A stretch of 64,000 bases of DNA, taken from contig JAVHPE010000126.1 of assembly GCA_036170475.1 (NCBI GenBank), positions 3,999 through 67,998 on the forward strand. The letters run 5' to 3'. Positions 4,103 to 54,779 of this stretch are shown in pieces. Position 1 is the stretch's first letter. Each line of letters starts with the position of its first letter. Under the pieces are notes generated by a model, which worked only from the letters and a program-made list of their open reading frames with translations, did not search any database and was not told where the DNA came from. The DNA is from Bacteroidia bacterium. Its GTDB lineage: Bacteria > Bacteroidota > Bacteroidia > 2-12-FULL-35-15. Both the position numbers and the translations under genes were made by a program.

Positions 4103-4634
4103 GGTTCAATAAAAATTTGTCGGCAAATATAATTGTTTTTAAAATGCTTCAGCAAATTTTTAATAAATACTAAAAAAGAAACGCAAACAACGGTTCACCC
4201 AATTTAACTAGTCATTCGTACTCGGCAATTAGTCGTTAATTTTTCTTTATTGGTCATCCTTTCTTAATTTATTACTCTCTAAAACAATGAAAAAAGTTCA
4301 GCATAATAATCAATTTAACAATCCTTTCTCTACCAATTTGGCGGTAAAAAATTATTAAAAAATTAAATTGAGTACACATTATGACATTTGTTAATCCATA
4401 ACTTTTGCTTCCGGATAACGCTCCTGCCAAGACTTTACCGCATACATACTACGAACTGTTACTGTAGTTTTGCTGTCTAACCGTATCTTTATTTTAGGAC
4501 GGTTATCTAAAATTATTTTTTTTGTTCTCATGATTTTTGTCTTTTCTATACATAAACACACTATTATAAATTATTATAGAAGGGTTAATTAATTTTTAAA
4601 TAGCCAGTTACGAAGCAGTAGCCAGACGATTAAT

Positions 4635-7268
4635 TTATTTTACTTTTTCCTTTTTAATTTTTTTATCCGATTCAATAGGATTTCGAAAAACAAATTCCTT
4701 GTTAAATAAATCCAAGACAATCTGCGAATTTTTCTGAACCTTGCCTGCTAAAATTTGTTTTGAAAGTTCATTCAATACACGCTTCTGCATAACCCGTTTG
4801 ATAGGTCTTGCGCCAAATTGAGGATCATAACCAAGTTGAGCTAACCAATCAATAGCGTCAGGTGTAGCAGTAATATAAATGTCATTTTCTTCCAGCATTT
4901 TAGCAACTCCATTGAATTGCAGTTCAACAATATGATGCACATCCTTCCTGTTAAGAGGAGTAAACATAATGGTTTCATCAATTCTATTTAAAAATTCAGG
5001 GCGCAAAGTTTTCTTCAATAGTTCGAATACTTCGATTTTTGTCCTGGCCATTATTTCATCTTTATTTTTTTCATTCATCTTTTCAAAATTTTCTTGAATA
5101 AGATGCGATCCCATATTAGATGTCATTATGATGATGGTGTTTTTAAAATTCACGATACGTCCTTTGTTATCGGTTAATCGTCCATCATCCAGCACTTGAA
5201 GCAATATATTAAATACATCAGGATGTGCTTTTTCTATTTCATCAAGCAGAACAACACTGTATGGTTTTCTGCGAACTGCTTCGGTTAACTGCCCGCCTTC
5301 TTCATAACCAACATACCCTGGAGGAGCTCCAACCAAGCGACTCACAGAGTGTCGCTCCTGATATTCACTCATATCAATGCGGGTCATACTATTTTCATTG
5401 TTAAATAAAAATTCAGCTAATGCCTTTGCTAACTCTGTTTTCCCAACACCTGTTGTACCAAGAAAAATGAATGAACCAATAGGTCGTTTTGTATCCTGTA
5501 ACCCGGCGCGACTTCTACGAACCGCATCACTGATAGCTTCTATGGCTTCATTTTGTCCTACCACACGTTTATGTAATTCATCTTCGAGATGCAGTAATTT
5601 TTCACGTTCACTTTGTAACATTCTGGAAACAGGAATACCAGTCCAGCTGGCAATAACACTGGCAATATCTTCACTATCCACTTCCTCCTTTATCATCTGT
5701 GAGCCGCTTTCTTTCATAAGGGCTAATTTATTTTCAAACACTTTCAATTCTTTTTCGGCTTCCTGCATTTTCCCATAACGTATCTCGGCAACTTTACCAT
5801 AATCCCCGCTACGTTCAGCTTGTTCAGCTTCAAATTTTAAATTTTCAATTTTTTCCTTCACTTTTTGAATGCCATCCACCACATCTTTTTCGCCCTGCCA
5901 TTTGGCCCGCAAATCGGTACGTTGATCAGCCAATTCAGCAATTTCTTTATTCAAATCTTCCAATTTTTTCTTATCATTCTCACGTTTTATTGCTTCACGT
6001 TCAATTTCCAGCTGCCGAATTTTACGTTCCAGGACATCCAATTCAATTGGCATAGAGTTGATTTGCATTCGTAATTTTGATGCTGCTTCATCCATTAAAT
6101 CAATGGCTTTATCCGGAAGGAAACGATCATTTATATAACGTTGCGAAAGTTCAACAGCAGAAATAATAGCTTCATCTTTAATACGTACTTTATGATGAGC
6201 TTCATATTTTTCTTTGATACCGCGCAAAATGGAAATAGCATCTTCGGCACTTGGTTCGTCAACCATCACCTTTTGAAAACGTCTTTCAAGTGCTTTATCC
6301 TTTTCAAAATACTTTTGAAACTCACTTAATGTTGTTGCACCAATGGCACGTAATTCGCCACGTGCCAAAGCTGGTTTAAGAATGTTTGCAGCATCCATGG
6401 CACCTTCACCTCCGCCAGCACCAACAAGCGTATGAATTTCATCAATGAATAAAATTATTTCTCCTTCTGCTCCAATTACCTCTTTAACTACTGATTTTAA
6501 ACGCTCTTCAAACTCTCCTTTATATTTTGCACCGGCAATTAATGCGCCCATATCCAATGAAAATATTTGTTTGGATTTTAAATTTTCAGGAACATCACCA
6601 TTAACGATGCGATGCGCCAACCCCTCAGCGATAGCGGTTTTACCAACACCCGGTTCACCAACTAAAATAGGGTTGTTTTTGGTTCTTCGAGATAATATTT
6701 GCAAAACTCTTCTTATCTCTTCATCCCTGCCAATGACAGGATCCAGCTTTCCTTTTTTTGCCTGCTCATTGAGATTAATGGCAAATTTGTTGAGAGAATT
6801 GTATGTATCTTCCGCGGTTTGACTGGTTACCTTAGCTCCTTTTCGGAGTTCAGTAATGGCAGTTTTCAGGTCTTTTTCATTAACACCATTATCTTTAAGC
6901 AATTGTGAGATAGTATCCTTTGTAGAAAGAATAGCAAGCAATAAATGTTCAATAGAAACATATTCATCACCAAATTCTTTCAAATAAGTAGATGCCTTTG
7001 AAATAGCCTGGTTGGCACTGTTAGATAAAAAAGGCTGGCCACCGGAAACTTTCGGATATCCTTCAACAATTTTATCTAAAGCCAAAGAAAACATCTGAGT
7101 GTTTACATTTAGTTTCTTAAGAATAAAGGGGGTTACGTTTTCATCTACCTCCAGAATACCTTTTAAAATATGCCCGTTTTCGATGTATTGTTGCCCGTTA
7201 ACTGTAGCAATCTGCATGGCATGCTGAACAGCTTCCTGCGATTTTATTGTAAAGTTATTTAGATTCAT
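4635..7268 (-). CDS. clpB: ATP-dependent chaperone ClpB
   Basis: MNLNNFTIKSQEAVQHAMQIATVNGQQYIENGHIL is the Clp N-domain. Two AAA+ modules are present (GEPGVGKTAIAEGLA and LGTTGVGKTELAKALA), separated by a long coiled-coil middle domain, with a sensor-2 GARPIKR motif. Start moved to the second in-frame ATG (MNLNN...), which matches ClpB N-termini. Confidence 0.95.
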   Translation of the reverse strand: MNLNNFTIKSQEAVQHAMQIATVNGQQYIENGHILKGILEVDENVTPFILKKLNVNTQMFSLALDKIVEGYPKVSGGQPFLSNSANQAISKASTYLKEFGDEYVSIEHLLLAILSTKDTISQLLKDNGVNEKDLKTAITELRKGAKVTSQTAEDTYNSLNKFAINLNEQAKKGKLDPVIGRDEEIRRVLQILSRRTKNNPILVGEPGVGKTAIAEGLAHRIVNGDVPENLKSKQIFSLDMGALIAGAKYKGEFEERLKSVVKEVIGAEGEIILFIDEIHTLVGAGGGEGAMDAANILKPALARGELRAIGATTLSEFQKYFEKDKALERRFQKVMVDEPSAEDAISILRGIKEKYEAHHKVRIKDEAIISAVELSQRYINDRFLPDKAIDLMDEAASKLRMQINSMPIELDVLERKIRQLEIEREAIKRENDKKKLEDLNKEIAELADQRTDLRAKWQGEKDVVDGIQKVKEKIENLKFEAEQAERSGDYGKVAEIRYGKMQEAEKELKVFENKLALMKESGSQMIKEEVDSEDIASVIASWTGIPVSRMLQSEREKLLHLEDELHKRVVGQNEAIEAISDAVRRSRAGLQDTKRPIGSFIFLGTTGVGKTELAKALAEFLFNNENSMTRIDMSEYQERHSVSRLVGAPPGYVGYEEGGQLTEAVRRKPYSVVLLDEIEKAHPDVFNILLQVLDDGRLTDNKGRIVNFKNTIIIMTSNMGSHLIQENFEKMNEKNKDEIMARTKIEVFELLKKTLRPEFLNRIDETIMFTPLNRKDVHHIVELQFNGVAKMLEENDIYITATPDAIDWLAQLGYDPQFGARPIKRVMQKRVLNELSKQILAGKVQKNSQIVLDLFNKEFVFRNPIESDKKIKKEKVK

Positions 7269-46407: not shown

Positions 46408-48765
46408 ATGGAGGAATTTATACCAACAACAACTGATCAGGCTTTAGTTGCTTCCCGATTTATTAATTCTACTAATAAAAATGTATTCCTTACGGGTAAA
46501 GCGGGAACAGGTAAAACCACGTTCCTGCGGCAAATTGTAATTCACACCTACAAAAAATGTTTAATTGTTGCTCCCACCGGAATTGCGGCTATTAATGCGG
46601 GAGGCGTTACAATTCACTCTTTGTTTCAATTACCCTTTGGATCGTTCGTCCCTGTTAACCAATCCCCGCACAATTTTCAGGTAAATGTAAAAATAAATGA
46701 TCCACTTTCTGTTATCAAAAACCTTCAGATGTATGACTCTAAACGTAAACTTTTACGTGAATTAGAGTTATTAATTATCGATGAAGTAAGTATGCTGCGT
46801 GCCGATTTACTCGATGCCATTGATCTAGTTCTACGCCATGTAAGAAGAAGAAATAATCAGCCTTTTGGCGGAGTTCAGGTATTATTTATCGGCGACTTAT
46901 TGCAGCTTCCGCCCGTTGTAAAAAACGAAGAATGGGAACAGTTAAAACCTTTTTACAATAGCATTTATTTTTTTGACGCACAGGTATTAAAAAACAATAC
47001 ACCGGCATATATTGAATTAGACAAAATATACCGGCAGACAGATCAACGCTTTGTTGACTTATTAAATCATCTTAGAAATAACGAGATATCAGCCGAAGAT
47101 ACTACCTTATTAAACACCTATTATAAACCAAATTTTAAAGCAAGTCCATCGGATAAATACATTACTCTCACTACTCACAATTATAAAGCAAACGAATTAA
47201 ATAAAAATTTACTGAGCAGATTGCACGGTAAATCATTTTTCTTTGAAGCCAAAATAGAAGATGATTTCAACGAACATGCCTACCCTATTGAAAAAACGCT
47301 AGAATTAAAAATAGGTGCACAAATTATGTTTATAAAAAATGACCCTACCGGTGCTCAACGTTTTTTTAATGGTAAAATCGGTCTTGTTTCCGCTATCAAT
47401 AATGCTATTATTGAAATAAAGTTTGATGACACTTCAGATCCAATTAAGGTGGAACATTATATATGGCAAAATTTAAAATATAAATTGAATGAAACAAACA
47501 ACGAAATTGAAGAAGTGATAACAGGTACTTTTACACAGTACCCAATTAAATTAGCCTGGGCGATAACTGTTCATAAAAGTCAGGGACTTACCTTCGATAA
47601 AGCTATAATTGACGCTAGTGACGCCTTTGCTCCCGGACAAGTATATGTCGCTTTATCGCGTTTGAGATCATTGGATGGCTTGGTGCTGACTTCAGCAATA
47701 AATTTTAATTCAATTAATCAGGATAGTAAAATTAACGCCTATTCTAAAACGCAAATAGAACAACAAAATCTGAATGAGCTTTTAACAAGTGAAACCTACC
47801 AATTTTTAAAGGAGTATGTATTAAAAAGTTTTGACTTTAATTCCCTTACCAAACAGTGCGAGGAGCATACCGATAGTTATGTAAAAGATGAAAAAAAATC
47901 TACAAAACAAAGGCATCACAAATGGGCGCGGGAATTGGAAAAAGAAGTAAAAGAAATCAAGCCTCATGCTGATAATTTCAGACATCAAATACTTTCAATC
48001 ATTGATAAAAAAGAAACAGGACACCTTGATTTTCTTCATAAAAGAGTGCTTGCGGCTTCCGCTTATTTTTCTCCGATTTTTAAAAACCTGACCAACAAAA
48101 TATTCCGACACATATTAATTCTGAAATCAGAAAAAAAAATAAAAACCTACCTGAATGAGTTATTATCACTGGAACTTATTGTTAATGAACAATACAAACT
48201 CATAAATAAAGCCGCACTTTTAATACAAGCAAGCATTACCAACAAGGAGATTACTAAAGCGGAGGTTGCAAAACTAAGTCTGGATTCACATCGGCTGGAG
48301 CAACTGAATATGATCTTCAATGCTGCGGTAAAAAGTAAAGCTACTAAAGAAAAAAAGAAAAAAATTACTGCCCTTAATCCCATATCTTCAGCCACTGCCG
48401 GAACAAATACCGATGAAGGGCTGAAATACGAAGCAAAAAAAGATACGAAAGCGGAAACATTTAAACTTTACAAACAGGGTAATACCATTGAATCTATCGC
48501 TAAATTACGGTCTATGGCAACAGCCACAATAGAAGGTCATTTAGCTTATTTTATTACCAAAGGAGAGCTGAATGCCTGTGATTTTTTATCCGCTGAAAAA
48601 ATAAAAAATGTGATAAGCGTTTCAAAAAAATTAGATACATTTCAATTCGGTTCGATAAAACAAGCATTAGGAGATGAATATAGCTATGGAGATATTAAAA
48701 TAGCCATCGCTTCTTATCTTTCAATTTCCCAGAAAAAAAAAGAAAGAACTTCAGAAAAGGAATAA
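46408..48765 (+). CDS. PIF1/RecD-like SF1 DNA helicase with long C-terminal helical/HTH extension
   Basis: Walker A FLTGKAGTGKTT, LLIIDEVSML, FIGDLLQLPPV, and C-terminal VHKSQGLTFD...VALSRLRS motifs. Confidence 0.8.
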   Translation: MEEFIPTTTDQALVASRFINSTNKNVFLTGKAGTGKTTFLRQIVIHTYKKCLIVAPTGIAAINAGGVTIHSLFQLPFGSFVPVNQSPHNFQVNVKINDPLSVIKNLQMYDSKRKLLRELELLIIDEVSMLRADLLDAIDLVLRHVRRRNNQPFGGVQVLFIGDLLQLPPVVKNEEWEQLKPFYNSIYFFDAQVLKNNTPAYIELDKIYRQTDQRFVDLLNHLRNNEISAEDTTLLNTYYKPNFKASPSDKYITLTTHNYKANELNKNLLSRLHGKSFFFEAKIEDDFNEHAYPIEKTLELKIGAQIMFIKNDPTGAQRFFNGKIGLVSAINNAIIEIKFDDTSDPIKVEHYIWQNLKYKLNETNNEIEEVITGTFTQYPIKLAWAITVHKSQGLTFDKAIIDASDAFAPGQVYVALSRLRSLDGLVLTSAINFNSINQDSKINAYSKTQIEQQNLNELLTSETYQFLKEYVLKSFDFNSLTKQCEEHTDSYVKDEKKSTKQRHHKWARELEKEVKEIKPHADNFRHQILSIIDKKETGHLDFLHKRVLAASAYFSPIFKNLTNKIFRHILILKSEKKIKTYLNELLSLELIVNEQYKLINKAALLIQASITNKEITKAEVAKLSLDSHRLEQLNMIFNAAVKSKATKEKKKKITALNPISSATAGTNTDEGLKYEAKKDTKAETFKLYKQGNTIESIAKLRSMATATIEGHLAYFITKGELNACDFLSAEKIKNVISVSKKLDTFQFGSIKQALGDEYSYGDIKIAIASYLSISQKKKERTSEKE

Positions 48766-49052
48766 TACCAATACTTATCATAAAAACATCCAATGTTTAA
48801 CAACATAGAAACATAGGATTTAAGATTTGATAGAAAAATATTTTTTTCACATAGTCTATGTTTAAAGTTCAGCCTATGTTTTGTACTCCGAAATATTTTT
48901 TTCTATCAATCTATGTAGTTAATTTTTACCACACCTTCGGGTGGTTACCCGCAGGGTGACAATTAAATTATTGGACTATATGTTAAAGAGTAATGGTATA
49001 AAAGGAAGAATAGCAGGATTGAACAGCAGCAAAAAACAGAAGAAAAATTGGG

Positions 49053-49088
49053 CAAAAAAAAAGGAGTACCGCATTGGTGCTCCTTTTT
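49053..49088. terminator. bidirectional rho-independent terminator
   Basis: A-run, GGAGTACC-gcat-TGGTGCTCC, T-run. Lies just 3' of the minus-strand Ala-rich lipoprotein gene. Confidence 0.6.
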
Positions 49089-49105
49089 AAGTTTGCAAAA
49101 AGAAA

Positions 49106-49381
49106 TTATTTTTTCTTTTTACCACCTTTTTTTGCGGCAGCTTCAGCTTCAGCAGCTTTTGCAGCTTCTTCAGCAGCGGTAGCATCAGCAGCAGCTTTAG
49201 CAGCAGCTTCAGCAGCGGCAGCCTCTTCAGCAGCTTTAGCGGCGGCAGCAGCAGCGGCTTCTACTTGTGCTATTGAATCTTTTGTAGCTTTTTCTTTAGC
49301 AGCTTTTTCTTCAGCGCTTGGTCCACAAGCAGCGAATGTAAACACACCTGCTAGGGCAACTAATGTAAATACTTTTTTCAT
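49106..49381 (-). CDS. Ala/Lys/Glu-rich small lipoprotein (paralog 1)
   Basis: MKKVFTLVALAGVFTFAACG lipobox, then an AEEKAAKEKA...AAAKAAEEAAAAEAAAKAA helical low-complexity stretch and a KKGGKKKK tail. Confidence 0.65.
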   Translation of the reverse strand: MKKVFTLVALAGVFTFAACGPSAEEKAAKEKATKDSIAQVEAAAAAAAKAAEEAAAAEAAAKAAADATAAEEAAKAAEAEAAAKKGGKKKK

Positions 49382-49473
49382 TTTGTTTTGTTTGTGATTT
49401 TAATTAAAATTTGCACAAAGCTACATTTATTTTTTTATTTCAAACAACTATTTTAAAAAAAATTCTTCAAGAC

Positions 49474-49511
49474 ATAAAAAAAAGTCCCGCAAAATTGCAG
49501 GACTTTTTTTA
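49474..49511. terminator. bidirectional rho-independent terminator
   Basis: A8-AGTCCCGC-aaaatt-GCAGGACT-T7. Lies 3' of the minus-strand Ala-rich lipoprotein paralog 2. Confidence 0.65.
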
Positions 49512-49526
49512 ACTCAGAATAAGGTA

Positions 49527-49847
49527 TTAACCTCTTCCTTGACCAGGTTTAACCGGTGCTGGCTCAGCCTTTTTAACGGGCTTAGCTTTTCCACCTTTTT
49601 TTGCAGCTTTTGCAGCTTCTTCAGCAGCAGCAGCATCAGCAGCAGCTTTAGCAGCAGCTTCAGCAGCAGCAACTTCGGCAGCTTTTGCAGCTTCAGCAGC
49701 AGCAGCAGCTTGAGCAGCAGCAGCTTCTACAACAGCAATTGAATCTTGTTTTGCTTTTTCTTTAGCGGCTATTTCTTCAGCGCTTGGTCCGCATGCATAG
49801 AATGAAAACATTCCTGCTACGGCAACTAATGTAAGTACTTTTTTCAT
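49527..49847 (-). CDS. Ala/Lys/Glu-rich small lipoprotein (paralog 2)
   Basis: MKKVLTLVAVAGMFSFYACGPSAEEIAAKEKAKQDSIAVVEAAAAQAAAAAEAAKAAE... About 70% identical to paralog 1 over the N-terminal 40 aa. Confidence 0.65.
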   Translation of the reverse strand: MKKVLTLVAVAGMFSFYACGPSAEEIAAKEKAKQDSIAVVEAAAAQAAAAAEAAKAAEVAAAEAAAKAAADAAAAEEAAKAAKKGGKAKPVKKAEPAPVKPGQGRG

Positions 49848-49991
49848 ATTGTTTTAATTGTTTATTTGGTTAACCGGAGACAAAAGTAATATTTTTATTT
49901 AACAAAAAACAAATTTATTTTGATAAAAAAAAACAGTACATTTGTATCCGAAAAAATTAATCATTCCAACTAACAAATAAAAATTAAACAA

Positions 49992-50630
49992 ATGAAAAAA
50001 AACATTTTAAATTTATCCGCAATTGCAATGATTGCATTAGCATCAGTATTTACAGGATGTAAAAAAGATGATATTACTCCCCCTGTTGTTACATTAACCG
50101 GTGATGCAAGTATTACTATTCCACTTAAAGGAGCTTATACTGAATTTGGTGCTACTGCAACTGATGATAAAGATGGTACTATCACTCCTGTCGTTTCTGG
50201 AGATGTGAATACAAACCTTACTGGTACATATACTAAAACTTATACAGCAACTGATGCTGCAGGCAACGTTGGTACAGCTACAAGAACTATTATCGTAATT
50301 TATGATTTAGCTGCAATGCCAGGTACTTATACATGTACAATTTCAGGCACTCCGGATTATGTTTATACACAAACAATAACTGCTGGAACAAATAATAGAA
50401 TTATTTTTGGTAAATTTGGTGATTATGCAGGGAATACAAGTATCTACGCTGATCGCGTAGGTGAAACTATTACATTGCCTAGTCAAACAGCTGTTCAAGT
50501 TGGAACGAATCCTGCCGATAGAACTTTTTCCGGTACAGGGTCAACAACTCAAACAGGTTTTACCTTAACATATACAGAAACTACAAACGGAAATACCATA
50601 AATACTAGTGAAACCTTTGTAAAACAATAA
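49992..50630 (+). CDS. DUF5011 (Ig-like) domain lipoprotein, paralog A
   Basis: Lipobox FTGC. PVVTLTGDASITIPLKGAYTEFGATATDDKDGTITPVVSGDVNTNLTGTYTKTYTATDAAGNVGTATRTIIV is the DUF5011 signature. Confidence 0.75.
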   Translation: MKKNILNLSAIAMIALASVFTGCKKDDITPPVVTLTGDASITIPLKGAYTEFGATATDDKDGTITPVVSGDVNTNLTGTYTKTYTATDAAGNVGTATRTIIVIYDLAAMPGTYTCTISGTPDYVYTQTITAGTNNRIIFGKFGDYAGNTSIYADRVGETITLPSQTAVQVGTNPADRTFSGTGSTTQTGFTLTYTETTNGNTINTSETFVKQ

Positions 50631-50653
50631 TATTATTTTAATTTTCTAAAAAA

Positions 50654-50683
50654 GAGTCCCGAAAATTTCGGGACTCTTTTTTT
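50654..50683 (+). terminator. rho-independent terminator
   Basis: GAGTCCCG-aaaattt-CGGGACTC followed by T7. Confidence 0.75.
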
Positions 50684-50712
50684 GCACTTCAAATTCCTTC
50701 AAGCAATTTTAT

Positions 50713-50720
50713 TACCTTTG
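50713..50720 (+). promoter_or_regulatory. Bacteroidota sigma-A -7 box TAnnTTTG within a conserved motif GCAATTTTATTACCTTTGTAT
   Basis: TACCTTTG. The same extended motif recurs at 51662-51669 and 52837-52844, upstream of two other envelope genes. Confidence 0.4.
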
Positions 50721-50821
50721 TATTTGTTAAAACACATTGATTTTTCTTATTATCAATTTTTAAAAATTGATATCCCTTTTCCGGTTATTAAGAATCATTC
50801 TGACCTATTAAAATACAAAAA

Positions 50822-50995
50822 ATGAAAAAGAACATCTTTAATTTTATTGTAATAGCCTTAATTTCAACCTCAATAGTGCTTACCGGGTGTAAAAAGCCTG
50901 ATAAAACAGCACCTGTTATAACCTTAAATGGTGATGCCAGCCTAACAATCTCTTTACAAGGCACTTATACAGGTTTTAAAACCTTGAAAGTATAA
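50822..50995 (+). pseudogene. truncated DUF5011 lipoprotein paralog (58 codons), interrupted at the toxin-antitoxin insertion
   Basis: MKKNIFNFIVIALISTSIVLTGCKKPDKTAPVITLNGDASLTISLQGTYTGF then KTLKV*. The N-terminus is collinear with paralogs A and C and stops within 5 nt of the RelE/ParE gene end. Confidence 0.6.
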
Positions 50996-50999
50996 ATAG

Positions 51000-51323
51000 T
51001 TAACGCTTATTTCTTTTAATAATTTCCATAGGGTATTGTTTGGTGTGGAATACGTCTGTTATAATTACTTGATTGTTCCTGTGTTGATAAATGATCTTAT
51101 AATTGCCTTCTACTATATATCTGCTGTTTTGTTTTAAGTGTTTAAGCAGTTGTTCTTCCGATCCGGAGTCAGGAAAGTTTTGTAATTGCTCCGCCCGAGC
51201 GATTAATTTGTTAATGTATTTAATAGCGATCGTTTCCGATCGCGTTTCATGTTCAATGTAATCTTTGATCTCATCTAAACTTTTTAAAGCAAAGGGTGTC
51301 CAAGCTAGTTTTACGTTATTCAT
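51000..51323 (-). CDS. type II toxin-antitoxin toxin, RelE/ParE family
   Basis: 107 aa. WTPFALKSLDEIKDYI...RYIVEGNYKIIYQHRNNQVIITDVFHTKQ. Confidence 0.75.
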   Translation of the reverse strand: MNNVKLAWTPFALKSLDEIKDYIEHETRSETIAIKYINKLIARAEQLQNFPDSGSEEQLLKHLKQNSRYIVEGNYKIIYQHRNNQVIITDVFHTKQYPMEIIKRNKR

Positions 51324-51559
51324 TATTTGCTACCGTATTTTATTTTTACGCTTTTATGCGGTATGAGTTTTCCTTGTTTGATTTCTTTTTGCGATTGATC
51401 ATTACGGTCATAAAACTCCTCCAGTGTAAAGGGCTTTATCACTTCCTTTTTGTTTTTTATCTCTTCGTTTAAAAGCATATAAATAGCTTTTAATAGTTGA
51501 TCGCTGTCAACTATATCAACGGCTTTGTGTATTTGTTTTTTTATGGCAGTCTTTGTCAT
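51323..51559 (-). CDS. putative antitoxin / addiction-module component
   Basis: 78-aa ORF whose stop overlaps the toxin start (shared ATGA-type junction). Small helical protein. Confidence 0.5.
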   Translation of the reverse strand: MTKTAIKKQIHKAVDIVDSDQLLKAIYMLLNEEIKNKKEVIKPFTLEEFYDRNDQSQKEIKQGKLIPHKSVKIKYGSK

Positions 51560-51661
51560 TTGTCTAATATTTTAAAACAAATTTACTAATTAATCGGACA
51601 TGTGTATTCCCCGGTGGCAAAGATGTCTTGCACTCTTTTTTTTTCTCTCCTGCAATTTCAT

Positions 51662-51669
51662 TACTTTTG
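51662..51669 (+). promoter_or_regulatory. -7 box TACTTTTG in conserved motif GCAATTTCATTACTTTTGTAT, 29 nt upstream of the DUF5011 paralog C start
   Basis: Matches the TAnnTTTG Bacteroidota consensus. Confidence 0.5.
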
Positions 51670-51697
51670 TATCTTTAGCAAGTCAAAATAAATCTAC

Positions 51698-52333
51698 ATG
51701 AAAAAAAACATTTCAAATTTAATTGCTATTGCCTTTATTTTAGGCTCATTAGTCTTTGCCGGTTGTAAAAAGCCTGATAAAACAGGTCCTGTTATTACCT
51801 TAAATGGTGCAGCCAGTCAAACAATTTCTTTACAAGACACCTATACTGAATTGAATGCCACAGCAACTGACGATAAAGATGGTTCTATTACCCCAACATT
51901 TTCCGGGACTGTAAATGTAAATCATACAGGTGCTTATATTATTACATACAGAGCCACGGATGCAGCCGGCAATATTAGTACTGCAATAAGAACTATTACT
52001 GTTGTGAATGATGTTGCGGCTATGACAGGATACTATATTTGTTCAGGTTCGACTAATTATAATGACACAATAACATTTTCTCCAATAAAGAACAATAGAA
52101 TTCATTTCGGTAAATTCGGGAATTACCAGGGAAATACAAATATCTATGTAGATATTACAGGTACGGATGTTATTCTGGATAGCGTATTTGCTGTCCAGGT
52201 TGGGAGCCCTGCTCTTGACAGATCCTTTAAAGGAACCGGTGTAATAACCTCTCCAACTGTTTTTAATCTGGATTATACCGAAACTATTAATGGAGTAGCT
52301 ACAAATAAAAGTGAACTTTTTACAAAACAATAA
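51698..52333 (+). CDS. DUF5011 (Ig-like) domain lipoprotein, paralog C
   Basis: Lipobox FAGC. PVITLNGAASQTISLQDTYTELNATATDDKDGSITPTFSGTVNVNHTGAYIITYRATDAAGN. Confidence 0.75.
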   Translation: MKKNISNLIAIAFILGSLVFAGCKKPDKTGPVITLNGAASQTISLQDTYTELNATATDDKDGSITPTFSGTVNVNHTGAYIITYRATDAAGNISTAIRTITVVNDVAAMTGYYICSGSTNYNDTITFSPIKNNRIHFGKFGNYQGNTNIYVDITGTDVILDSVFAVQVGSPALDRSFKGTGVITSPTVFNLDYTETINGVATNKSELFTKQ

Positions 52334-52375
52334 TAACCTGCGTTCGATTAATAAATTCACAAAAACTGTGTGTTT

Positions 52376-52808
52376 TTCTTTTTTCTTGAAAAAAAAGAAA
52401 CAGGGCAAATGTGTAGTACACATTTGAGCCAGCATGTGTATGGCTTTCAAGAACAAACGATTCCTCCCCACAAGCAACACAACATCGCGTTTGTTCAGTC
52501 CTCACGCGCATTTCCATAAATTTATTTTTGCACAAAATGAAATTATTAACGGTGCGGCTGATGTCCACGAAAAGTGCGAACCGCAAGTTTCGTGGCGATG
52601 TTGCGTAAGGCATTTGCGGGTAAAACGAAGGCTTGTGGTTGGTTTTCGTGGTCTCCTTTTCTTTGTTTCTTTCTTTTGGAGAAACAAAAGAAAGAAAAAT
52701 CCTTTCACGAAGCTGCATTGCAAGTCAATTGGCGATATTTCTATAATCGAACTCAGGTTAAGGGTAGTGAATTTATAAAAGCCCTTCATTAATGGAAGGG
52801 CTTTTTTG
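52376..52808 (+). ncRNA. candidate structured non-coding element A (paralog of 57886-58110): sRNA or MITE-like unit
   Basis: GC-rich island with conserved blocks GGTGCGGCTGATGTC (52551), GGTTGGTTTTCGTGGTCTC (52640) and the hairpin CTTTCTTTTG-gagaaa-CAAAAGAAAG (52669-52694). A similar hairpin TTCTTTTTTC-ttg-AAAAAAAAGAA lies at 52376-52402. Mutually exclusive pairings are possible: CCACGAAAAG with CAAGTTTCGTGG or with GGTTTTCGTGG. A rho-independent terminator follows at 52779-52808. Overlapping ORFs on both strands are non-protein-like. Confidence 0.3.
52779..52808 (+). terminator. rho-independent terminator
   Basis: GCCCTTC-attaatg-GAAGGGC followed by T6. Confidence 0.65.
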
Positions 52809-52836
52809 TGTTATCTAATCCATTAAGCAATTTTAT

Positions 52837-52844
52837 TACTTTTG
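52837..52844 (+). promoter_or_regulatory. -7 box TACTTTTG in conserved motif AAGCAATTTTATTACTTTTGTGT, 34 nt upstream of the LTA-synthase-family gene
   Basis: TAnnTTTG consensus, in a motif shared with 50701-50725 and 51650-51672. Confidence 0.5.
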
Positions 52845-52877
52845 TGTGGTTGACTACAATTTTATAATTTAATCTGC

Positions 52878-54779
52878 ATGCAAAAAAACTTCGGCAACCT
52901 TTTTGGATTATTAAAACATCTTTTTCCCTTACTCATTATTTATGCCGCTTACAGACTACTTTTCTACTTTTTTTACTATTCATATTTTTCAGATTTAAGT
53001 CTCTGGAAACTTTCATCGATACTATTTTTTGGTCTTCGGTTCGATTTATCGGTTATCATACTATCTAATTTTCTTTTTGTTTTATTATACCTTTTGCCTT
53101 TTGCATTCAGGGAGAAAAATTGGTATCGAATATTGCTAAAATGGCTATTTTGGAGCGTTAATAGCTTAGCTATGTTAGCTAATTGTGTTGATTTAGTCTA
53201 TTTCCAATTTACATTAAAGCGTACGAATGCTACTGTGTTTCATTTTTTCGGAGGGAAAATCGGTAATGATTTAGGACATTTGCTTCCCTTGTTTTTAAAA
53301 GAGTATTGGTATATTTTAGCTATCTGGATGGTTTTATCATACTTTATCTATTATCTGTATAAAAAAACCGAAAAAATTTTTCCACAACAATGGACAACAA
53401 AGCAATATAGCCTGCAAACAGCTATTCTAATAGGATTCAGTCCGCTTTGTATTATTACCTATCGCGGGGGATTCCAATTAAAACCAATTAGTATTGTAAG
53501 TGCCGGAGAATATGCTCCCGCAAAATATGTTCCTTTAGTAGTGAACACACCTTTTGCTATTCTGAAAACATTGGATGTGCCGGCAATTGAACCCTCTGTT
53601 TACTGGCCGCATGAAAATGAAATAACGATTAAAGAATTATTCAATCCTAACCATAAAGCTAAAAATGGAACTTTTAAAAAATTAAATGTATTTGTAATTA
53701 CGCTAGAAAGTTTTTCAAAAGAATACATTGGCGCACTCAATGGTAAATCTAACGGCTACACCCCTTTTTTAGATTCGCTTATTTCTGAAAGTCTGATTTT
53801 TACCAATGCATTTTCAAATGGAAAGACTTCCATTGAAGGCATTCCTGCTATCGTTTCAAGCATCCCAACATGGATGAATGAACCTTTCATTACGTCACCT
53901 TATGGAAGTAATCAAATGAACAGCTTAGCTAATTTACTAAAAAAGCAAGGTTATTATTCCGCATTTTTTCATGGTGGGACCAATGGAACTATGGGTTTTG
54001 ATGCATTTGCCAATCTTGCCGGGTATGATGATTATTTCGGACGCACTGAATATAACAACGAAAAAGATTATGATGGAAACTGGGGAATCTGGGATGAAGA
54101 ATTTTTGCAATATACCGCCAATACTATTAATAAAAAGCAACAACCCTTCTTTGCAACTGTATTTACTTTAACATCACACCACCCTTTTCCTATACCTGCT
54201 AAATACAAAAATCAATTTAAAGAAGGTGCTCTTCCTATCGAAAAAAGTATTGCTTACACCGATTACGCATTAAAAATTTTTTTTGAATCCGCTAAAAAAA
54301 TGCCCTGGTTCAATAATACACTTTTTGTATTATCTGCTGATCATACAGGTATTTCAACTGATCCTTACTATACAAATAATATAGGCAACTATTCGATACC
54401 CATTATATTCTATATGCCAAACAGTAAATTGAAAGGATGTGATTCTACGATCACTCAGCAAATAGATATTATGCCTTCGGTACTTGATTTCTTAAATTAC
54501 CCATTACCTTATTTTGCTTTTGGAACAAGTGTTTTCGATACTGCCCAACAACACTTTGCATTTGTTTTCAGGTATGATTTATTTCAATTGATTGAAAATA
54601 ATTATTTACTTCAATTTAATGGTGATAAAGCAACCGATTTATTTCATTTTACTACTGATAGTTTGCTTAAAGATAATTTGATTCTGAAAGATTCAGTTCT
54701 TGCAAAAAAAATGGAAAACCATACTAAAGCTATTATTCAAACGTATCAGCAAAGTTTGATAAATAATAAAATGCACTAA
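52878..54779 (+). CDS. LTA-synthase-family protein (polytopic N-terminus plus sulfatase/alkaline-phosphatase-superfamily domain; phosphoglycerol/phosphoethanolamine transferase-like)
   Basis: Five predicted TM helices, then VFVITLESFSKEYIGALNG...TPFLDSLISESLIFTNAFSNGKTSIEGIP... and SADHTG. Confidence 0.7.
   Translation: MQKNFGNLFGLLKHLFPLLIIYAAYRLLFYFFYYSYFSDLSLWKLSSILFFGLRFDLSVIILSNFLFVLLYLLPFAFREKNWYRILLKWLFWSVNSLAMLANCVDLVYFQFTLKRTNATVFHFFGGKIGNDLGHLLPLFLKEYWYILAIWMVLSYFIYYLYKKTEKIFPQQWTTKQYSLQTAILIGFSPLCIITYRGGFQLKPISIVSAGEYAPAKYVPLVVNTPFAILKTLDVPAIEPSVYWPHENEITIKELFNPNHKAKNGTFKKLNVFVITLESFSKEYIGALNGKSNGYTPFLDSLISESLIFTNAFSNGKTSIEGIPAIVSSIPTWMNEPFITSPYGSNQMNSLANLLKKQGYYSAFFHGGTNGTMGFDAFANLAGYDDYFGRTEYNNEKDYDGNWGIWDEEFLQYTANTINKKQQPFFATVFTLTSHHPFPIPAKYKNQFKEGALPIEKSIAYTDYALKIFFESAKKMPWFNNTLFVLSADHTGISTDPYYTNNIGNYSIPIIFYMPNSKLKGCDSTITQQIDIMPSVLDFLNYPLPYFAFGTSVFDTAQQHFAFVFRYDLFQLIENNYLLQFNGDKATDLFHFTTDSLLKDNLILKDSVLAKKMENHTKAIIQTYQQSLINNKMH

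Follow-up and report, generated by a model that had tools for sequence, protein, structure and literature searches.

The window analysed here, a 64,000-nt stretch of contig JAVHPE010000126.1 from an uncultured member of the Bacteroidia, carries a short array of lipoprotein genes that contains a toxin–antitoxin (TA) pair. The array is bounded by a PIF1-type helicase gene at 46408-48765 and by a sulfatase-family gene at 52878-54779. After the helicase gene come a pair of small minus-strand genes for Ala-rich lipoproteins, gene A, open reading frame (ORF) B, the toxin and antitoxin genes on the minus strand, and gene C. A and C belong to the DUF5011 family (PF16403, present name Bact_surface_Ig-like). 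An earlier note, made from the letters of this DNA, had proposed that the TA pair took the place of the distal part of a middle DUF5011 paralog. We found that ORF B is, judged by its sequence, a real 5′ stump of a third DUF5011 gene, that the pair is missing from the orthologous loci of other species, and that it reached this locus by horizontal transfer. The genes concerned are as follows.

49992-50630, + strand: paralog A, an intact DUF5011 lipoprotein gene of 212 aa (PF16403, E=1.5e-16)
50822-50979, + strand: the homologous part of the B stump, which corresponds to a 211-aa-type DUF5011 gene from its signal peptide and lipobox to about the 27th mature residue
50980-50995, no strand: junction tail, in which ORF B has its final codons and its stop, and whose similarity to the family is not above that of shuffled controls
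51000-51323, - strand: toxin gene of the ParE/RelE superfamily, 107 aa
51323-51559, - strand: antitoxin gene, 78 aa, upstream of the toxin gene, its stop overlapping the toxin ATG by 1 nt
51698-52333, + strand: paralog C, an intact 211-aa-type DUF5011 lipoprotein gene (PF16403, E=1.2e-16)

A and C are full length, as the earlier note had it, with the coordinates it gave and with PF16403 matches at E ~1e-16 (60.6 bits for A and 60.9 bits for C, against a cut-off of 27). Both have a lipoprotein signal peptide, and the lipobox reads FTGC in A and FAGC in C. The two proteins are ~59% identical to each other, and the C protein is 83%, 82% and 78% identical to P0002, P0003 and P0004 from related loci. 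C adjoins the sulfatase gene, as the corresponding gene does in relatives.

The toxin scores above the cut-offs of two curated profiles, PF05016 ParE_toxin (50.6 bits, cut-off 23) and TIGR02385 RelE_StbE (32.3 bits, cut-off 27.9), both of which place it in the RelE/ParE superfamily. Its homologs are named ‘toxin ParE1/3/4’ or ‘plasmid stabilization system protein ParE’ in their source annotations, and the nearest solved chain is a weak match (6x0a_A, ‘Plasmid stabilization system’, E=0.0019). The ratio of nonsynonymous to synonymous divergence (dN/dS) of the toxin gene against its copies in two metagenome contigs, L097 and L098, is 0.17, which is consistent with purifying selection on a functional gene. 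The small antitoxin gene lies upstream in the same operon and overlaps the toxin gene, which is the type II layout, and the two genes stay together with the antitoxin upstream in L091-L093 and L097-L104. The pair thus resembles the parDE and relBE modules in its antitoxin-first two-gene operon with a 1-nt stop/start overlap and in its ~100-aa toxin; unlike them, its antitoxin fits no curated family. The best profile match of the antitoxin, NF050811 RelB/ParD, is sub-threshold (E=0.04, 14 bits against a cut-off of 60), and Pfam, NCBIfam, PADLOC and the PDB yielded nothing convincing. The earlier designation as a RelE/ParE TA pair is therefore sound, with the upstream gene as the putative antitoxin; the toxin is placed by sequence at the superfamily level, and its action may be ParE-like (poisoning of DNA gyrase) or RelE-like (ribosome-dependent mRNA cleavage). 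The whole B–TA–C arrangement recurs, identical or at 99.9%, in several independent metagenome assemblies (SRR254905xx runs), and it is therefore not an assembly artefact of the window.

ORF B is annotated at 50822-50995 as 57 codons plus a stop. Its alignment with C is gapless and 125 of 156 nt are identical (80%), compared with 127 for the P0002 gene, 126 for the P0004 gene and 104 for A; a repeat search reports B and the 5′ end of C as a 158-nt direct repeat at 80% identity. In protein terms, 37 of 50 residues are shared with C and 38 of 50 with P0002, and the synonymous divergence (dS) between B and C is ~0.5. The possibility, raised by the earlier note itself, that B resembles the family in its signal peptide only does not hold: the homology passes the signal peptide and lipobox (LTGC) and continues through CKKPDKTAPVITLNGDASLTISLQGTYT, about 27 residues past the lipobox cysteine, and includes the mature-part motif CKKPDKTAPVITLNG..SLQGTYT that is common to the family. 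B is thus a member of the DUF5011 lipoproteins by homology beyond the signal peptide, and it has no Pfam match because the ~20 residues of the domain that are left are too short for one.

Alignment of the paralogs at the nucleotide level places the end of this homology between 50972 and 50980. The collinearity up to GTYTGF that had been described is therefore real but stops after GTYT, and the final GF KTLKV before the stop is not homologous to the family. The stop codons of B (50993-50995) and of the convergent toxin gene (51000-51002) have 4 nt between them, just as the earlier note had read it. A perfect 14-nt palindrome, AGGTTTTAAAACCT (50971-50984), spans the breakpoint and may be a chance occurrence in AT-rich DNA; a related TTTTAAAAC lies in the TA promoter region at 51570-51578.

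What lies upstream of B bears on its identity, and the transcription signals of the locus are therefore listed here.

50648-50683, no strand: terminator-like palindrome 3′ of A, a bidirectional inverted repeat, GAGTCCCG..CGGGACTC, flanked by an A-run and a T-run at opposite ends
50684-50821, + strand: promoter and long leader of the resident second gene, -7 box TACCTTTG at 50713-50720
51578-51585, - strand: TA promoter -7 box, TAAATTTG, 19 nt upstream of the antitoxin ATG
51652-51697, + strand: C promoter module, GCAATTTCATTACTTTTGT, -7 box at 51662-51669

The TAnnTTTG -7 motif is an established promoter feature of Bacteroidetes and was used here; a sigma-70 scan is uninformative for this phylum. 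The motif occurs 83 times in the 64 kb, counting both strands, so that single matches are weak evidence; what counts is position, and the motif stands ahead of every gene at the locus (for A at 49937-49944). The palindrome 3′ of A is kept in three related loci (L007, L094 and L008), and TTAGTAAATTTGTTT around the TA -7 box is conserved in a 75%-identical cassette in L093. The leader of C is only 28 nt from box to ATG, compared with ~100-140 nt in relatives. There is no terminator between B and the toxin gene, nor, in the direction of TA transcription, any terminator before the bidirectional hairpin 3′ of A. Rfam gave nothing at gathering score on 48700-53000.

The 191-nt region between A and B is 85% identical to the region ahead of the intact 211-aa genes for P0002 (in L007) and P0004 (in L094), and this identity covers the terminator, the TAnnTTTG promoter box and the ~100-nt leader. 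In position, then, B is the ortholog of a gene that is full length in these relatives. No distal remnant of it was detected: local alignments of 50979-50999 and 51560-51697 to seven family genes fell below shuffled controls. An intact B was not found elsewhere either, the best of 120 ranked family proteins being P0002 with its 38 of 50 residues; a search with the 50 residues of B, which is a weak test, returned only two candidates, namely the stump and a variant of it, 98% identical and likewise 57 aa long. The orthologous upstream region and the lack of a detectable distal part bear out the view that the TA pair stands in place of distal B, and the absence of the pair from orthologous loci and its horizontal origin, described below, lend this further support. 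In annotation, the 57-aa ‘hypothetical protein’ ought to be labelled a pseudogene fragment.

To place the locus among its relatives, a DUF5011 family search and a scan at one genome per species were combined, giving 80 loci. About 50 of the 80 share the order helicase, small lipoprotein gene or genes, DUF5011 gene or genes, sulfatase and diacylglycerol kinase, and all of these syntenic loci come from metagenome-assembled genomes of uncultured Bacteroidota/Bacteroidia. All relatives are metagenome-derived, many on short contigs, and the closest are known solely from such short contigs. Most loci have one DUF5011 copy; two are present in L008/L011, L010, L017, L030 and L055, and three in L041. 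Among the ~50 syntenic loci of other species not one contains a match to the toxin or antitoxin, so that comparison across species finds the pair missing here in each of the other species-level genomes that were compared. The closest TA-less relatives, L007 (P0002) and L094 (P0004), have an A-like gene, the intergenic region and an intact 211-aa gene. Close relatives have either two DUF5011 genes (L007 and its ENA contig, L094, L008, L010) or one (L012, L014-16), and none has three. The description of three paralogs in tandem applies to A, C and the stump of B, where close relatives have two genes; an intact three-gene array is undocumented in the window lineage, and C may have come in with the TA block.

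In another species (locus L043), ~1.5 kb of extra DNA (4466-5978) separates the DUF5011 gene from the sulfatase gene at the equivalent spot and contains two adjacent small ORFs of 100 and 108 aa that have no Pfam match. These may be a further selfish module of two genes at this hotspot.

The horizontal origin of the pair became apparent from contigs L097-L104 and L091, which were reached through the 90%-identity cluster of the toxin. The DNA held in common is:

50996 to ~51666, - strand: horizontally shared TA block, comprising the toxin gene, the antitoxin gene, the TA promoter, a T-run (51636-51644) and the upstream half of the C promoter module

The window at 50996-51643 is 93.4% identical over 648 nt to L097 at 1455-2102 (flipped to the orientation of the window), and the alignment runs on through one 11-nt indel to 51666, into the -7 box of the C promoter, so that the promoter of C moved along with the TA pair. 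In the comparison of the window with L097/L098, dS is 0.15-0.18 for the toxin gene and 0.07-0.10 for the antitoxin gene. The genes that flank the block are at 73-76% DNA identity in the same comparison: the A-type gene is 73% identical, and the sulfatase gene beside the block is 75% identical with a dS of 1.43. The block therefore moved horizontally, long after the lineages diverged, and this roughly tenfold or greater contrast in dS rules out vertical inheritance of the pair at the locus. No copy of the pair was found on plasmids or phages by tblastn against PLSDB and INPHARED, and IMG/VR gave only relatives at 37-39%. A scan of JGI metagenomes with the toxin alignment gave, among the matches listed, identities of at most 56% and one 34-residue partial match at 68%, and junctions could not be mapped from these.

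The arrangement around the block in L097-L104 and L091 is different from that in the window. Read in the orientation of the window, these contigs have small lipoprotein genes, one A-type DUF5011 gene, a terminator, the sulfatase promoter and ~45 sulfatase codons, to which the last 40-55 codons of a 211-aa-type DUF5011 gene and its terminator are fused; then come a 41-nt spacer, the toxin gene, the antitoxin gene, the T-run, a truncated 211-type promoter, ~150 nt of unassigned sequence, an inverted 5′ antitoxin fragment, the sulfatase promoter and a full sulfatase gene. In L097/L098 the sulfatase 5′ fragment is 86% identical to the full copy. The sulfatase N-terminus/DUF5011 C-terminus chimera forms a 71-aa ORF in L097/L098. 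The inverted antitoxin fragment, which lies between the TA pair and the sulfatase gene, is the 5′ part of a different antitoxin gene (46% identical) and has its own TAAATTTG promoter. The locus therefore received TA DNA more than once. The chimera and the antitoxin fragment are found at 979-1358 and 2285-2374 of L097 (flipped) and, in locus coordinates, at 6423-6638 of L098.

On the toxin side, the flanks of the window, of the L097/L091 group and of L092 (whose toxin is 87% identical) are unrelated to one another and diverge no more than 4 nt from the toxin stop codon, which gives the block a sharp limit. The 75%-identical pair in L093 adjoins pgk and has only the core promoter TTAGTAAATTTGTTT in common upstream. 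The repeat search found no terminal inverted repeats, target-site duplication or attC-like pair around 50996-51666, and there is no integrase or transposase ORF beside the block, the neighbours being the helicase, lipoprotein and sulfatase genes.

How the block came to lie in B is less certain than that it did. The earlier note's picture of a TA cassette that landed in a paralog array is essentially right, but simple insertion does not describe the event, which was either a replacement or an insertion with a subsequent deletion. The reading we tentatively put first is an import of the TA pair by homology-facilitated illegitimate recombination, leaving a resident stump B, the TA pair and a donor or hybrid C. 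The resident array before the event would have been A–B, as in close relatives. The TA block would have come in on DNA of a related bacterium. Besides the block, this DNA would have included the promoter of a 211-aa-type lipoprotein gene that belonged to the donor, together with the 5′ part of that gene or more of it. At the antitoxin-side end, homologous recombination would have taken place within or beyond that lipoprotein gene; at the toxin-side end, the incoming DNA would have been joined illegitimately inside resident B, a few nt past the toxin stop codon. The outcome would be the stump of the resident gene, the TA pair, and a full-length C of donor or hybrid origin.

An import of this kind is supported, as far as sequence comparison goes, by the split orthology of the two 211-type copies, with B orthologous on its upstream side and C on its downstream side (C lies beside the sulfatase promoter and gene, like P0003 in L095, L008 and L010), by the two-gene state of close relatives, and by the C promoter, which forms part of the horizontally shared block. 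The low dS of the TA genes beside that of the sulfatase gene, and the divergence of three different toxin-side flanks no more than 4 nt from the toxin stop codon, count in its favour as well. L097/L098 have an architecture that parallels that of the window with another gene, namely a sulfatase 5′ fragment, a TA-bearing insert and a full sulfatase gene. The divergence of C itself is uneven. Against the P0002 and P0004 genes, C is 75-78% identical over the 5′ 400-480 nt and 87-88% identical over the 3′ end, the latter being about the level of the resident intergenic region, and a control comparison of C with L008C shows no such 5′/3′ break. The Max-chi2 test for mosaicism in C, which rests on 636 nt, gave p=0.01 with P0004 and p=0.15 with P0002; at third codon positions p was ~0.06. 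The 5′/3′ divergence is suggestive of a crossover in C. The gene may have come in together with the TA block through a one-sided homologous recombination event, or may be a paralog of greater age.

Several observations weigh against the import. Mosaicism between 5′ and 3′ parts is common in the family, P0002 and P0004 also showing a break (p=0.002), and the 5′ end is in general the more variable part of DUF5011 genes, which makes the divergence within C no more than suggestive. The cassette of L097/L098 adjoins, on its toxin side, the 3′ end and terminator of a 211-aa-type gene, a junction that fits a past order of gene, TA pair, promoter and gene, as a three-gene history would predict. No donor genome with the toxin-side tail of the window was found, and no microhomology or other mechanistic signature is readable at the junction. 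Finally, we know of no natural transformation or other route of DNA uptake in this uncultured lineage.

The three-gene history just mentioned is, in our estimation, slightly less probable than the import. It has an array A–B–C arise first, in the window lineage or in a donor lineage, with insertion of the TA pair into the B–C spacer and a later deletion from about codon 51 of B through the B terminator to the toxin stop codon. The cassette in L097/L098 lies directly after a 211-aa-type 3′ end and terminator, and that 3′ end is closer to P0002 (83%) than to C (74%), as expected of the lost end of B; the remnant of a 211-type promoter stands on the other side of the cassette. Upstream of C, the T-run followed by a promoter resembles a terminator–promoter spacer. 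Copy number varies from one to three among species, L041 showing that three can occur, and the B–C dS of ~0.5 is compatible with old paralogs. This history has to contend, however, with the lack of three genes in any close relative, and with a deletion whose end would have to fall, by chance, no more than 4 nt from the toxin stop codon, at the very place where the flanks of the L097 group and L092 also diverge. Moreover, neither a recognisable B terminator nor a remnant of the L097-type 41-nt spacer is present in the window. Both the import and the three-gene history fit the locus, and the evidence does not separate them decisively.

We consider it unlikely that the block is instead a discrete, site-directed TA unit of 650-675 bp, with a fixed end at the toxin stop, that is aimed at the terminator/promoter spacer by some recombinase or a structure-specific process and truncated B as collateral damage. 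Three independent toxin-side junctions lie no more than 4 nt from the stop codon, the same locus was struck in two lineages whose flanking-gene dS exceeds 1.4, and the L097/L098 locus also holds the fragment of a second, different antitoxin gene. A 2020 review describes TA insertion as non-random and its mechanism as unknown, the movement and integration of stand-alone chromosomal TA cassettes being ‘unelucidated’ (PMC7167474). Yet the block has none of the bracketing repeats, target-site duplication or adjacent recombinase genes that such a unit might bring, its antitoxin-side limit is inseparable from shared target sequence, homologous flanks explain the same-locus recurrence equally well, and a simple insertion would leave distal B beyond the TA pair, where none is found. 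The wider proposal, that the TA promoter–antitoxin–toxin unit is a mobile cassette which, through a trans-acting or structure-specific mechanism, repeatedly enters the terminator/promoter spacer of the lipoprotein–sulfatase locus across Bacteroidia that differ by more than 25% in DNA, is likewise improbable in our estimation. If true, the discrete-cassette reading would make this locus a natural system for solving the integration mechanism of stand-alone TA pairs.

That B is a duplicate of the 5′ end of C made by the insertion (a long target duplication) or a chance ORF is very improbable and was rejected in the first form on divergence and upstream orthology: the two are indeed direct repeats around the TA pair, but they are only 80% identical while the TA block is 93% identical to its copy in another lineage, B is equally close to the P0002, P0004 and C genes and has a long orthologous upstream region that C lacks, and 125 gapless identities in 156 nt are impossible by chance.

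The locus shows other signs of rearrangement. A is itself a mosaic, its first ~100 residues matching a 227-aa type (P0085, with 37 identical N-terminal residues) and its C-terminal half matching a 215-aa type (P0023, P0024). The L097 and L098 alleles of the first DUF5011 gene are 91-98% identical except for a ~230-nt non-homologous central stretch. Such allele mosaicism suggests, at the sequence level, frequent allelic recombination in a surface protein. A 19-nt promoter module, GCAATTTYATTACYTTTGT, stands ahead of B (50703-50721), C (51652-51670) and the sulfatase gene (52827-52845), each copy ~20-30 nt past a terminator T-run; these repeated terminator–promoter spacers could serve as short recombination anchors. 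The small Ala-rich lipoprotein genes (49106-49381 and 49527-49847, - strand, 91 and 106 aa) are tandem paralogs divergent from A that are present in one to three copies at the equivalent position of nearly every related locus, and their sole family match, below threshold, is to the PG1828-family lipoproteins. One further element lies downstream of C.

52334-52760, no strand: insertion of 427 bp resembling a miniature inverted-repeat transposable element (MITE), with 17-nt terminal inverted repeats, 16/17 matching

The MITE-like element has TA dinucleotides on both flanks, lies directly after the C stop codon and before the C terminator, and is missing from the equivalent spot in L095. Two metagenome contigs, L001 and L002, break off 57 nt inside it, and its nt 114-213 have 78% matches at other places in L098, L099 and L010. 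It is a second mobile insertion at the locus, separate from the TA event.

Illegitimate recombination facilitated by homology is known from the uptake of foreign DNA by Acinetobacter and Streptococcus pneumoniae. There, as in the import history, homology anchors one end of the foreign DNA while the other end is joined illegitimately, resident sequence is lost with the insertion, and a diverged partial duplicate of the anchor gene can remain. The resemblance is one of architecture, that of the window and of L097/L098. Integron TA cassettes, such as those of the Vibrio superintegron, are thought to stabilise variable gene arrays, and they too are compact units with their own promoter and sharp ends. 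The block in the window is unlike them in having no attC-like inverted repeats and no integron integrase nearby, and in lying in an array of lipoprotein paralogs; with no inverted-repeat pair bracketing 50996-51666 and no integrase among the neighbours, we set aside an integron gene cassette. A TA pair borne by a transposon or insertion sequence was set aside as well, the only element nearby that is bounded by terminal inverted repeats being the separate MITE-like insertion.

In genomic behaviour the pair resembles the stand-alone chromosomal TA insertions of enterobacteria, mazEF in relA-mazG, yafNO in dinB-yafP and ccdO157 in folA-apaH (PMC7167474). These share with the window a minimal cassette without mobility genes, presence/absence polymorphism between relatives and a plastic site that is reused by different elements (PMC7167474). 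In contrast to them, the cassette in the window abuts a truncated coding sequence and is not cleanly intergenic, and its locus has several gene scraps and an uncultured Bacteroidota host with Bacteroidetes-type promoters. The kind of event is thus already known, and the locus is an unusually legible example of it. What it adds is a proven horizontal movement, a sharp cassette end and recurrence at the same locus in a lineage with a dS above 1.4. The locus can be read because TA-less relatives show the intact gene before insertion and because the gene scraps record illegitimate joins; its recombination scars include the B stump, the chimeric sulfatase/DUF5011 ORF, the second antitoxin fragment, the MITE-like insertion and the mosaic lipoprotein alleles.

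By analogy with ParDE and RelBE, a labile antitoxin would neutralise and co-repress the stable ParE/RelE-fold toxin, and cells losing this putative type II addiction module would be penalised. Because B keeps an intact promoter and leader, and no terminator separates it from the toxin gene, transcripts that start at the B promoter should read through the toxin gene in antisense. Recombination between the 158-nt direct repeats of B and the 5′ end of C would precisely remove the TA pair and restore a single gene, and addiction would counter-select such a deletion, so that the scar would be fixed. Where a TA pair lies between direct repeats able to excise it, as here, an addiction module would be expected to lock in a rearrangement that disrupts a gene.

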